Source: Octopus vulgaris
Taxonomy: Eukaryota
Length of the DNA stretch: 64,000 nt
NCBI GenBank assembly: GCA_951406725.2
Contig: OX597834.1
Span: forward strand, 37,758,001-37,822,000
Direction: 5' to 3'
The notes beneath the pieces are model-generated. The model did not search any database, was not told where the DNA came from, and saw only the letters and a program-made list of their open reading frames with translations. Numbering within the stretch: position 1 is the first letter of the stretch; every line of letters starts with the position of its first letter. A program made the position numbers and the translations under genes. Shown piece by piece: positions 31,287 through 59,188 of this stretch.

Positions 31287-31532
31287 TCAATGCTGTTGAT
31301 AGAAGGAGAACAGAAGGAGCAGCGATCGAATGAGGTTCGGATACTTCCAGACAAATGTCGCAGACGACGACGATGATGACGCACGACACATAAGTGTGTG
31401 GTTGTTGCACAGGGATGTCTTGCAGCACATTTTCTGCAGGTTTGGTACCTTCGACAGGCAGGGACATTCTTTGGAATTGTTAAGGCACTGGAATTTGATG
31501 AAGAAAGAATCTTCTCGCTGAAGGATTTCTAT
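31287..31532 (-). CDS. Ly6/uPAR (three-finger) protein, terminal coding exon with GPI-anchor-like tail
   Basis: Acceptor ttttactttcatctttacatttttgaatctaatttcag|ATA; 246 nt open to TGA: IEILQREDSFFIKFQCLNNSKECPCLSKVPNLQKMCCKTSLCNNHTLMCRASSSSSSATFVWKYPNLIRSLLLLFSFYQQH*. Has the CCxxxxCN cysteine box, a small-residue (A/S) omega-like region and a hydrophobic C-terminus. Confidence 0.85.
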   Translation of the reverse strand: MEILQREDSFFIKFQCLNNSKECPCLSKVPNLQKMCCKTSLCNNHTLMCRASSSSSSATFVWKYPNLIRSLLLLFSFYQQH

Positions 31533-31624
31533 CTGAAATTAGATTCAAAAATGTAAAGATGAAAGTAAAATGCATATAAAAATCATTAAAATAAGCAGAT
31601 CGATATTCGATGTGTAATTAGTTC

Positions 31625-32080
31625 TTTTATTCTTTTACTTTTGTCAGTCATTTGACTGTGGCCATGCTAGAGCACTGCCTTAGTCGAAGAAATCTACTCC
31701 AAGACTTATTATTTTGTAAGCCTAGTATTTATTCTATCAGTCTCTCTTTGCCGAACCGATAAGTTACGGGGACGCAAACACACCAACATCGGTTGTCAGT
31801 CGATGGTGGGGGAACAAACACTGCCGCAAAGACATACGCACATGACTATATACATACACGCACACACACATACACGCACACACACATACACGCACACACA
31901 CATACACGCACACACATATATATATATATATATATATATATATATACGACAGACTACTTTCAGTTTCCGTCTACCAAATCCACTCTCAAGGTTTTGGTTG
32001 GCCCGAGGTTCTAGTAAAATACACTTGCTCAACGTTCCACGCAGTGGGACTGAACTTTGAACCATGCGGTTGGGAAGCAA
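31625..32080 (-). mobile_element. SINE family B
   Basis: Tail-to-head match to family B. Confidence 0.85.
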
Positions 32081-33199
32081 ACGCTTTTGGCTGGTAAGGA
32101 TGCGGCCAACATTTTGTTAAGCAACAGATTTATTCAATCACATAGTCAGGTCCCAACTCGAACCAACAGCTTTGGGCTGTTTAAAGTCACCAACGGTGAC
32201 GAACATCTACTTCTGTATATTCATCGTAAATATATATTAGTTAAACGAACTTCAGCTTAGCTAAAATATTTTTGTGACATATTTCAACTTCTAAAAACAA
32301 ATTCACTGCAATTTCGTTGGAGAAAAAAATTCTCGCTTATGGTAAAGCATGTTTGCTCAGTGTCTTCCCCTAGCGGACTCTTAGACGCATTTAACTGACC
32401 TAAAGTTCATTTATTCCCCGTCACTGCTCAGCGCTGACACTATTATATTTATTTTGAAGAGGCAATCCGCAAGCATAACTTGGTCACAGATACTTCGGCA
32501 TCTCCTACTGAGGAAGGCTAATAAGCTAGAAACGTGTATTTTGCTTTATTTGACTTCTCACAAAGACATTAGTTTTAGAATTAAATCTAAAGAAAGCATA
32601 GTCAATCGGTGGTACTTTGAGACTTTCATAATGGTAGTGGTAGTATTGCGTACATAGTGTAATGCAATCTAAACTCTTCCTTCACCCCTTCATAAAAAAG
32701 AATTTTTTGTTTTGAGAAAGAGAAATAGCTTGAAAAAGTAAAAAGGTTTTCTTGTGAAACGACTATGAACAATAAAAATATCAATAACAGTAGCGGTTGA
32801 TTGGCAGATGCTGATAATATCGACAATAATAAAACAATAACAAAAGAGACATAGATATATGAAAAGCAACATTTGTCCAGCAATGCAGTTAACTGGGGAG
32901 AGGTGGATACGACAGCAATATCAATAAAAGAGAAACACTGGACGAAGTGTATTGCAAAGGACAATACTTCCTTGCCCGAGTGTTTCGGTGATGAAATAGA
33001 AAAAATAATGATGTTGTCTACATCTTCTTGAAAAACAGACAGGGAGATGACATGTCCTGTAAAGAGGATCTTTGACGGGCTTTGTTCAATGAGTAGCAGG
33101 AAATATATTATGTCGGACAGTAGTTAAGGTTTTGGCACAGTACTTCTAGAAGTGGTGAAGGAGGCTCAGAAACAGTCAGTGCTCGGGCGATACACATTA

Positions 33200-33900
33200 A
33201 CCTTTAAGTTGGTAACCGATTGTACGAGGCAAAGATTTATGGTGTGAAGTGCGACGACGTACTCCGAGAGACTGGGCGCCGACGAAAACGAACTGACCAG
33301 TCTGTTTCCGGTCGGGAACAATCATGGATAATTTCCAGATGTCCTTGGTCTGGCAGTACTACCGGGGCGGGCGCGGGGGGGGGCGCTACCGTTTCGAGAT
33401 AAACTCTACAGGAACAGATGAGTAGTCAGACGGACTTGCCCGAGGTGCGCGCAGAGTGACGAAACAGTTCTGCAACGCCCTCGTTCAGTGTCCGGGCATT
33501 GCTGACTTGTGGGTTTATGTTGAACAGCTGCTGTCACGTGTGGGACGGATCCGTCTGTCGGCCGAGTCGGTACTGGTGATCGCACTGGCAAGGCAGTTTT
33601 CCTTTGCTTGGTGGATGTGACGAAAGAGGTTGTTTGGTGGATAAGGCCGAAATGAATGAGGGTAGATACATTCCTCTTTGGTAGAACTCTCAATTGAAAA
33701 GGAAACTGAGAGTAGAGAGGGAAGTGCTGTCCTCGAGTGAGTTTATTGAAAGGTGGGTGAAACTTGTGAAAATGGCAAGAGTAGATGGTACCTCTCTGAG
33801 TGTAGACCTGTGAGTCGGAGAGAAGGAACAGTAGAGGGCACATGCTCCTAGGTTTTCTAGGAAATCTCGATTATCCCTAGAGGCCTTCCTGTATCAGAAG
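33200..33900 (+). mobile_element. L1/Tx1-like LINE ORF2 C-terminal fragment (zf-RVT-type zinc finger)
   Basis: ALPFRDKLYRNR*VVRRTCPRCAQSDETVL(fs)ALVQCPGIADLWVYVEQLL...KEVVWWIR...LKRKLRVERE...FIERW. Confidence 0.8.
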
Positions 33901-33967
33901 GGACACATCTTTATCATCCTTGCTGCCACGTATTTTTTACTAATTTTTGTATGCCATGTGTATATAT

Positions 33968-56454: not shown

Positions 56455-57085
56455 AGGTGTGTAGTTGCGTGGTAAGAACCTTGTTTCCCACCCACATGGT
56501 TCCAGGTTCAGTCCCACTGCGTGGCATCTTGGGCAAAATGTCTTCTTCTATAGCCTCGAGCCGACCAAAGCCTCATGAGTGGATTTGGTAGACGGAAACT
56601 GGGAGAAGCCCGTCGTATATATATATATATATATATATATATATATATATATATATATATATGTGGGTTTATATACTCTTACTCTTTTACTCTTTTACTT
56701 GTTTCAGTCATTTGACTGCGGCCATACTGGGGCACCGCCTTTAATCGAGCAACTCGACCCCGGGACTTATTCTTTTGTAAGCCCAGTACTTATTCTATCG
56801 GTCTCTTTTGCCGAACCGCGAAGTAACGGGGACATAAACACACCAGCATCGGTTGTCAAGCAATGTTAGGGGAACAAACACATACACACAAACTCACACA
56901 CACACACATATATATACACATATATACGACAGGCTTCTTTCAGTTTCCGTCTACCAAATCCACTCACAAGGCATTGGTCGGCCCGGGGCTATAGCAGAAG
57001 ACACTTGCCCAAGATGCCACGCAGTGGGACTGAACCCGGAACCATGTGGTTGGTTAGCAAGCTACTTACCACACAGCCACTCCTA
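56455..57085. mobile_element. Two SINE family B copies, tail to tail (56455-56615 plus; 56678-57085 minus)
   Basis: Family B heads on opposite strands. Confidence 0.85.
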
Positions 57086-58159
57086 AATATATAGGATGGG
57101 TTTATATATATATATATATATATATACGTTCAACTAATACCCTCTGTTGTTCCCTCACCTGACTCAGTCTTTTGGGGTTTTTGTACGATTTTGAACCATA
57201 TATAGATGCCGTAGTGAGGCCAGTAAACTTACATAGTGTTACCAGTGCGTAATGCTATATATAATATGACTATCAAGAGGCGATAGTGAGGCCATAGTCA
57301 AACCAATAATATTATTTAGCAAGGTCAATAAGTAAAGTTGCGTAATGTGACCATTTTATTTATTTTGGCTTTCTCTTTCTTGCAGCAGTTGACCCTGTGT
57401 CAAGTAAGAAAAGGTTAATCGATATTTCTATAACAGAGAGAAAGGGAGAGAGAGGGAGAGAGAAAATGGGAGAGAGCGAAGGGTGATGTAGAGGTGGGAG
57501 AGACAGAGAGGACTGAGATATAACAATAGAACAAGAAAATAGAGAGGAAAGAAAGAGGAAACCATCTCGTTTGTCTGTTGGCTGGGGAATGAGAACGTAT
57601 CACTATTACCACCGTCACCACCACCACCACCAGCACCACTACAACAGCAACAATCATCATCATCATCACCATCATCACCACCACCATCACTATCATCATC
57701 ATCATCATCATCATCATCATCATCATCATCATCATCATCATCATCACCATCTTACGATCAATGCCAAACTAATAAGTAGATCACAAACCCCAGACCAATA
57801 CAATTGCTAATCCGCCGAAACTCTTTGCCAAACGCAGAGATCGATTTCCGAACATTTTGCTTAAAGAGACGTTCAAGTAAAATTCGACTTCGATTTCAGA
57901 CGAAAAGAAACCGATCTCCCTGCTGCACCCAGCTTTCTCCCTCTGGTGTGTTCTTTAAACTTTTAATACAATGGAGGGCATCGCTGAAGACTTAAGAGCC
58001 AAGAAGCTATATTTTGAAGACTATCGAGGCCATGGGTGTTGCTGTTGCTCTTTAACCCTAGGTTCACTTGGTCGAGTAAGCCTATGATCAATGGCAATTT
58101 CGGATATGACCATCTCATCTTTATCGTATCTCTTTTATCTTTTACTGTGAACACGAGTA

Positions 58160-58425
58160 GTTTTATGGTTGAGGTATCTGGCTCATGGTGGTTGTGTCCT
58201 TGGGCAAGACGTTCTACTTCACATTGTTCCCGTCCCCTCAACTGGCAAAAATGGATAGTACCATCCTTATCACATTCTGTGTGTCATGCTGAATCTGCCT
58301 GATAACTACCATTATGAGTACACGTGTCTGTGGAGTACTCAGCCACTAGCACGTTAATTTCACAAGCAGGCTGTTCCGTTGATCGGACCAACTGGAATAC
58401 TCATCGTCGTAACCGACGGAGTACC
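58160..58425 (+). mobile_element. Degenerate SINE with Meta-like core and tail type 2
   Basis: gttgtgtccttgggcaagac... and a tail gtacacgtgtctgtggagt.ctcagcc...cgtcgtaaccgacggagt shared with 60507-60873. Confidence 0.7.
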
Positions 58426-59086
58426 AGTTTATCTGTTACTTGTTTCATTCATTAGACTGTGGCCATGCTGCAGCACCACCTGAAAAAAGGGTTTGTCGAG
58501 CCAATTGACCCACAGCACTCATTTATTTACAATCAGGTACTTATTCTATCGATGTTTCTTCCCTAACGGCTGAGTCACGGGAACTAAAAACAAACACTGC
58601 AGTGAAATGAGACAAACATGAACACAATGACACATACAAATATGACGGGCTTCCACACAGTTTCCGGTTATCAAATTCACTGACTAAACTTTGGTCAACC
58701 CGGGGCTATAGAAGAAGGCACTCTCGGGGTCTGAGCCTAGGACTACGTGGTTGCAAATTAAGCTTCCTTGCCACACAGCAATACCTGCACCCATATCTAT
58801 AACTGCATTGCCAAATATCTATTTTAAAGACCGTGGGGAATGGATTAATGAAGGATTCAACTGCTGTTTTTTGCAATCAGACAATCGCGTTGAGCAGGGA
58901 TTATCAACCAAGTTTTATCATTCTGGTGGACCCCTATAGCCATTTTATGTTTGCGAACTAGTTTTATAGAAACTCCTTTCAATATTCCTATTGATGGTGG
59001 TGGAGGTGGTGGTTGTGGTGGTGGTGGCGGTGGCGGCGGTGGTGGCGGTGGTGGTAGTGGTTGTATAAAAGTAAGAATTTACTTAC

Positions 59087-59188
59087 CTGACACTTCCTTC
59101 CCACACAAGGCACTTTATGGAACATGGAGTAAATCTTAACGGCTTTGTGGCATTGGTAATCTGTACAGTTGCCATGGTAACACATAAA
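59087..59188 (-). CDS. Ly6/uPAR (three-finger, LU-domain) protein, internal coding exon
   Basis: Minus strand reads ttcttcttcattttcag|TTT ATG TGT...AAG TGT CAG|gtaagt: canonical acceptor and perfect donor, 102 nt = 34 codons, FMCYHGNCTDYQCHKAVKIYSMFHKVPCVGRKCQ. Five Cys spaced like the N-half of an LU domain; joins in phase 0 to 31287-31532. Confidence 0.85.

Follow-up and report, generated by a model that had tools for sequence, protein, structure and literature searches.

Proteins of the three-finger (LU) family are built on a domain of 60-90 residues with ten cysteines, which ends in CC-x4-C and carries a non-glycosylated Asn after the tenth cysteine (PMC6600238; what is credited here to PMC6600238, PMC9410279 and PMC13719153 refers to the available passages of these papers). 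In a typical, though not obligatory, LU gene the domain is encoded by two exons, with flanking introns of phase 1 and an inner intron at the tip of loop 2 (PMC6600238). Two described genes, GPIHBP1 and SP-10/ACRV1, follow a plan of a signal exon, an exon for a disordered N-terminal segment and two LU exons (PMC6600238). Here we describe a gene of Octopus vulgaris with this same plan, whose product is a 354-aa protein with a signal peptide, a long mucin-like region and a 12-cysteine domain that is probably of the LU type. The two exons for this domain lie in a stretch of 64,000 nucleotides (G000:C21:37758001-37822000 in the 2.8-Gb genome; C21 is contig OX597834.1), hereafter called the window, and the gene continues beyond the window's end. 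An earlier note, made from the letters of the window, had proposed a hidden two-exon gene with an atypical LU domain at this place.

The octopus protein differs in detail from both of these systems. GPIHBP1 is attached to the membrane by a glycosylphosphatidylinositol (GPI) anchor and its N-terminal segment is short, acidic (21 of 26 residues) and restricted to mammals, whereas the octopus segment has 219 aa, 26 of them acidic; SP-10 is secreted (PMC6600238), whereas the octopus protein is predicted to be GPI-anchored. We regard the parallel as an analogy of layout, which does not imply kinship in sequence. A 2026 survey by Pfam profiles put the number of three-finger proteins at 2086 for 25 mollusc genomes, an average of 83 per genome; a mucin-like tail is absent from the non-standard three-finger architectures that its available passages list, and its supplementary lists may include this gene (PMC13719153).

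Splicing and exon structure of the gene

The evidence for splicing comes from contigs of public sequencing runs, none of which is recorded as RNA; the kinds of the runs are guesses and tissue labels are lacking. A query with exon 4 listed 24 runs, 19 of which contained part of this exon, and four runs each were compared with the window over 31030-31800 (exon 4) and 59062-59226 (exon 3). The 364-nt contig of run X1 aligned with exon 3 by its letters 1-106 and with exon 4 by its letters 103-363 (31536-31276). Exon 4 was also covered by X2 and X7, while the lack of cover in X13 (organism C) carries no weight; exon 3 was covered in all four runs compared. The contigs of X1, X2 and X5 broke off at 59087, and the 30, 17 and 30 letters shown beyond the break are the start of exon 4; those of X1 and X5, read by eye, hold one synonymous change. 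The contig of X3 stops 10 bases before this joint. The predicted junction of 59087 with 31532 was found, exact to the letter, in three runs from two studies (P1 and P2).

The genome search gave a single strong match for each of exons 3 and 4, each at its own place; therefore, the joined form is not a retrocopy in this genome assembly. Since the contigs skip exactly the 27,554 nt between a GT and an AG, and no second genome copy exists from which they could derive, we infer that they represent spliced RNA. The contigs of X2, X3 and X5 extend 5' of exon 3 by at least 255, 138 and 178 letters, which match the genome once, at the end of the 683-nt exon 2. Thus these contigs establish the joints of exons 2-3 and 3-4. 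A plain structure consisting of a signal exon and two LU exons was ruled out, because the contigs continue from exon 3 into the mucin-like exon. The two exons first described, with their splice sites, in-frame join, 12 cysteines and three domain sequons, all stood when the sequence was re-read; the gene, however, has four exons and not two, as three of the four compared runs continue 5' into a third.

The four differences of the X2 contig from the window in the coding part of exon 4 are all synonymous. Given that 161 of the 729 possible changes are synonymous, the chance of this outcome is 0.002, a value that is optimistic, as transition bias was ignored. A contig of X2 (depth 6.5) passes over window 31516-31668 from exon 4 into intron 3, which may reflect unspliced RNA or DNA in the run. 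With regard to paralogues, other places in the genome matched exon 4 at E 1.3 or worse and none matched exon 3, and a scan of 364 kb around the gene returned four CC-x3-5-CN frames, namely exon 4 and three that lack the other cysteines, so that no tandem cluster was seen. One copy of the gene was detected in the genome.

When the four coding exons (Table 1) are joined they give 1065 nt, which encode 354 aa and contain no internal stop: a signal peptide (1-20), the mucin-like region (21-239), the cysteine domain (240-322) and a tail (323-354). All splice sites are canonical. Exon 3 is preceded by an AG acceptor and followed by the donor GTAAGT; exon 4 is preceded by an AG acceptor and ends with TGA. 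Exon 2 lies about 10.5 kb past the window end, and a further 11,270-nt intron separates it from exon 1. The N-terminus of the O. bimaculoides protein described below agrees in 10 of 12 residues with the genome at G000:C21:37844510 (next best in 164 kb, 5 of 12), where a GT donor in the right phase adjoins the match. Thus the signal-peptide exon, which had been expected beyond position 64000, was placed there by homology. The X2 contig has 938 letters 5' of the compared part, a length sufficient to reach exon 1.

Table 1. Features of the octopus gene (window positions, unless a G000 coordinate is given)
Feature	Position	Strand	Description
Exon 1, coding part	G000:C21:37844477-37844510		begins with ATG; 34 nt coding for signal peptide; donor of phase 1; located through similarity to P0002, without reads
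Exon 2	G000:C21:37832524-37833206		683 nt, beyond the window; end of signal peptide and Ser/Thr-rich mucin-like region
Intron 2, in-window part	59189..64000	minus	whole intron 15,335 nt
Exon 3	59087..59188	minus	102 nt with both ends in phase 0; encodes Cys 1-5, the first half of the domain
Intron 3	31533..59086	minus	27,554 nt, GT..AG, phase 0; skipped in contigs of X1, X2 and X5
Exon 4, coding part	31287..31532	minus	246 nt including stop; Cys 6-12 (C-x-C, CC-x4-CN, late Cys)
Exon 4 end			32-aa tail after the last Cys with Ser run and hydrophobic stretch; read as GPI signal
Start of 3' untranslated region	31221..31286	minus	X2 contig reaches 31221, X1 contig 31276

A mixed trinucleotide repeat of 200 nt (window 59250-59460) stops some 60 nt short of the exon 3 acceptor, on its upstream side. 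Exon 4 is flanked on both sides by a very abundant SINE-like dispersed repeat (window 31052-31131 and 31620-31800), the copies of which attract thousands of contigs; many further copies are scattered across the window.

Database models and relatives

A search among longer proteins gave two matches out of seven candidates. These are XP_036367652.1 of O. sinensis, named 'mucin-5AC-like' (377 aa; P0001), and XP_052831447.1 of O. bimaculoides, named 'uncharacterized' (LOC128250450; 356 aa). Both have the same product of exons 2-4 and represent the same gene, and neither their names nor Pfam note the cysteine domain. As these two RefSeq proteins carry the domain letter for letter (83 of 83 residues in each species), the gene cannot be called hidden; the earlier note missed these models as well as the 219-aa mucin-like region between the signal peptide and the domain. 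In that region the identity falls to 207 of 218 residues in O. sinensis and 188 of 217 in O. bimaculoides (Fisher p against the domain, 0.039 and 9e-5, respectively).

Gel-forming mucins such as mucin-5AC are very long chains that comprise VWD, CysD and cystine-knot domains. The label does not fit the octopus proteins, which are 354-377 aa long and match no VWD, CysD or cystine-knot family of Pfam. The O. sinensis N-terminus was rejected as the true start, since 28 of its 36 leading residues match an intronic repeat just upstream of exon 2, at G000:C21:37833373-37833480; further copies of this dispersed repeat gave weaker matches. The N-terminus of this model is probably wrong and its signal peptide missing.

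When phmmer was run against 1.84 billion representatives, three matches were obtained at E <=0.001, namely P0002, P0003 (5e-11) and P0004 (5e-4); the two named ones are from cephalopods. This narrow spread is in line with the proposal of a lineage-specific subfamily. In P0004, which is CAE1247178.1 of Sepia pharaonis, cysteines 1-6 are kept and are followed by repeat-like sequence. The kept stretch passes the position of the octopus intron; in the Sepia gene Cys6 may be followed by a further intron, and the last exon may be missing from the model. P0003 represents a cluster of five, and is probably from another cephalopod, because the signal peptide of its member P0007 resembles that of the Sepia protein. 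P0004 and P0007 share the layout of the octopus protein, with a signal peptide, an S/T-rich tail of about 100 aa (56% and 36% S+T, respectively) and the domain.

At 41% identity, P0003 retains all 12 cysteines, including the C-x-C and the Cys six residues after the CN box, and 10 of the 11 spacings are unchanged. Thus the extra cysteine pair was found to be conserved at a fixed spacing. Of the CPC motif and the sequons that had been pointed out, the C-x-C and the first sequon are kept in P0003; the Pro and the other two sequons are not.

Single-sequence searches, which can miss remote kin, revealed no relative beyond the two RefSeq proteins, P0003 and P0004. A word-based homolog search with exon 4 among proteins of 45-146 aa gave one candidate and none that scored, because the real protein is 354 aa long; a search with the P0003 domain among proteins of 117-373 aa returned P0003 alone (one of one candidate). 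In a literature search, the scope of which excluded most subscription journals, the accessions were named in no paper and the protein was described in none. Judged from these comparisons, the gene is already modelled and mislabelled, and is so far found in a cephalopod-centred set only.

The cysteine domain

The domain has 12 cysteines at spacings of 4, 4, 14, 4, 16, 6, 1, 10, 0, 4 and 6, and three sequons. From C242 to N316 it measures 75 residues, and ten of the cysteines can be placed in LU order, which leaves two extra. N316, the residue after the tenth LU cysteine, is outside any sequon (N317 is within one), and the Asn is sequon-free in P0003 too. The LU-type cysteines would be expected to pair 1-5, 2-3, 4-6, 7-8 and 9-10.

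A profile of three sequences was scored on 13 frames from nine octopus loci that had been picked by the QVR and Activin_recp families; a cysteine filter removed the second-half QVR frames of three loci, and six frames were tested against 1000 shuffles. The best match was an activin-receptor exon with 10.7 bits, a score reached by 0 and 2 of 1000 shuffles (2 when the cysteines were fixed). The match with one QVR-type exon was reached by 13 and 23 (23 with the cysteines fixed). In both matches the cysteines are in register with the profile. Each of the ten named clusters that ranked highest in the ESM Atlas belongs to the LU clan, with scores of 0.85-0.89, which lie below the tool's line of 0.9 and come from a single source; LYPD1-like clusters (0.88-0.89) head the list. 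The two AlphaFold models, both of low confidence, agree only on a beta-hairpin that lies between Cys5 and Cys6, at the expected place of loop 2. Because of the cysteine spacing, the weak profile matches and the language-model matches, we consider a three-finger fold likely and the protein a probable, though not proven, member of the family. Two further kinds of search were uninformative: fold searches with the low-confidence models (VIA-align matched unrelated chains, with a best Z of 4.9; Foldseek found no match at E 0.001), and genome searches with Toxin_TOLIP and UPAR_LY6, which matched neither the locus nor the controls.

The joint conservation of C322 and the C-x-C suggests that the extra pair forms a sixth disulfide, a view which we favour with some reserve. 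Such an addition would not be exceptional, and the weight that had been laid on 12 cysteines as unusual was overstated: proteins of the LYPD6 and Lystar5/Lynx2 type supplement the five ancestral disulfides with an apotypic one, as is predicted for the octopus pair; in LYPD6 and in type II TGF-beta receptors such additions are located in loops (PMC6600238); the disulfides of Lystar5 number six, and fingers commonly bear one to three extra bonds (PMC9410279). The added bond of LYPD6 stabilises loop 3 (PMC6600238), whereas that of the octopus protein, with one extra cysteine beyond the CN box, would fasten the linker at the C-terminus to the domain. The C322 position is not among the disulfides in the available passages of PMC6600238 and PMC9410279.

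Predicted membrane anchoring and possible function

A GPI-anchored protein is marked by a signal peptide, a small-residue attachment site, a C-terminal hydrophobic stretch and the absence of a cytoplasmic tail. The octopus chain starts with a hydrophobic stretch (best 11-residue hydropathy 2.87) and ends, with no cytoplasmic tail, in another (2.09; 2.75 in P0003). Since it combines a signal peptide with small residues that lead into a hydrophobic C-terminal stretch, and has no cytoplasmic tail, the product is likely to be GPI-anchored. In P0003 and P0007 small residues are followed by a long hydrophobic stretch at the end of the chain; the fit to a GPI signal, clear in P0007, is less so in the octopus protein. 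As an anchor site the CN-box Asn was rejected: it would remove C322 and leave a 38-aa propeptide, and the residues at +2, the size of which matters for attachment, are large. The mucin-like region contains 37% S+T and no cysteine, makes up over 60% of the chain, and is likely to be O-glycosylated.

We propose that the protein serves as a docking platform on the cell surface with a glycocalyx tail, and give this reading a probability of about 0.5. The product would be exported and GPI-anchored, with the O-glycosylated tail pointing outward and the LU domain at the membrane. One Cys of the C-x-C (C296 or C298) would bond with C322, six residues after the CN box, and thereby clamp the short linker and hold the domain rigidly close to the anchor. 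The anchor would be attached to a small residue that closely follows C322, so that C322 would stay in the mature protein. As GPIHBP1 does, the domain would dock a partner, either secreted or in the membrane, and the tail, variable in length, would act by its bulk and glycans as glycocalyx, spacer or shield. That the domain is invariant while the tail drifts and varies in length suggests binding of the domain to a partner protein that is itself conserved. A role at an epithelial or gamete surface (adhesion, barrier or capture of secreted proteins) seems more likely than a neuronal channel role.

Several results weigh against this proposal. Pfam gave no LU-clan family up to E 10 for the exons, the full proteins or the relatives, and the PDB, searched by sequence and by the three-sequence profile, gave one chance match each and no relative. 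The AlphaFold models have a pLDDT of 50.5 (sequence alone) and 42.2 (with three sequences). The LU-like cysteine pattern of the original claim stands. For four of the six octopus LU exons tested, the profile match was not above the shuffles. The inner intron lies one residue after Cys5 in phase 0, the flanking intron is also of phase 0, and in both phase and position this is unlike the typical LU gene. The hydrophobic tail of the octopus protein is short (11 residues, one of them Arg) and ends with polar residues. Finally, the location of exon 1 rests on homology to the O. bimaculoides protein.

The channel modulator that had been suggested at the outset found no specific support and is an unlikely reading. 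It would be a protein like Lynx1 or quiver, the domain of which tunes the gating or trafficking of a nicotinic-type receptor or Shaker channel in the same membrane. Lynx1 and quiver/sleepless (QVR, PF17064) are GPI-anchored single LU domains, as is predicted for the octopus protein, and the anchor, the membrane-proximal position and the near-invariance of the octopus domain would all suit such a role, as would the LYPD1-like clusters of the ESM Atlas. Moreover, the first half of the domain aligns with the octopus QVR-type exon at similar Cys3-4 and Cys4-5 spacing, a match which is weak once six tests are counted. On the other hand, those proteins start with C-x2-C and not C-x4-C, the octopus protein matches no QVR (PF17064) or UPAR_LY6 profile and its fold was not modelled with confidence, and, to our knowledge, neither Lynx1 nor quiver has a mucin-like tail of 100-220 aa. 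The six QVR matches of the genome are all elsewhere, the scanned 364 kb hold no LU neighbour, and LU proteins have many roles other than at channels (PMC13719153). Three of these matches, QVR-type first-half exons on one strand within 127 kb (G000:C5:49957042-50083940), are likely to form a small quiver/sleepless-like cluster; the other three, of the second half, are on C2, C13 and C20.

It is rather improbable that the protein is a secreted or shed component of mucus, with a tail that does not work as an anchor and a cysteine domain that serves for cross-linking or for the stability of a small mucin. The large mucin-like share of the chain, the short, polar-ended octopus tail and the secretion of SP-10, which has the same layout, would agree with this. 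The long hydrophobic ends of P0003 and P0007 speak against it, and so do the even number of conserved cysteines, which fits intrachain bonds, and the absence of a VWD or cystine-knot domain.

We give little credence to a growth-factor decoy or co-receptor, that is, a kinase-less ectodomain like those of activin/BMP receptors (PF01064) which would bind a ligand of the TGF-beta family at the surface. An activin-receptor exon was indeed the best of the 13 frames, and the second half of the domain aligns with it through the CC-x4-CN box; the other two activin-receptor loci, however, scored at shuffle level, and no Activin_recp match was found. In contrast to the receptors of this family, which have a kinase and a cytoplasmic part, the octopus chain ends 32 residues past its last cysteine, with no kinase match and no transmembrane helix that leads to a cytoplasmic part. 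We would set equally low a disulfide-rich, cephalopod-specific fold outside the LU family that merely shares the CC-x4-CN ending. The lack of Pfam and PDB matches, the failed models, the C-x4-C start and the atypical intron would follow from it; the ten cysteines in LU order and at LU length, Atlas neighbours that all belong to the LU clan, the in-register profile matches and the loop 2 hairpin in both models would not.

Sucker chemotactile receptors are kin to nicotinic receptors. It is very improbable that the protein represents an LU subfamily peculiar to cephalopods, with a mucin tail and with the domain locked to its anchor by a sixth disulfide, which acts as accessory partner of a cephalopod-specific receptor such as these; if true, these receptors would have their own endogenous three-finger regulator.

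As to annotation, the gene labelled 'mucin-5AC-like' probably encodes a three-finger surface protein that escaped Pfam, and surveys of invertebrate LU genes that rely on profiles can therefore overlook members. If the sixth disulfide forms, the conserved Cys that follows the CN box would mark a disulfide site absent from the available passages of PMC6600238 and PMC9410279, and the tail-first layout would parallel GPIHBP1 and SP-10 independently. Given about 83 three-finger genes per mollusc genome, the result is modest unless the partner is a cephalopod-specific receptor.

Elsewhere in the window, open frames with a common PDI motif occur at 12567-13082 (minus strand), 28448-29200 (plus strand) and 63469-63786 (minus strand); they resemble the C-terminal endonuclease region of non-LTR retrotransposons.

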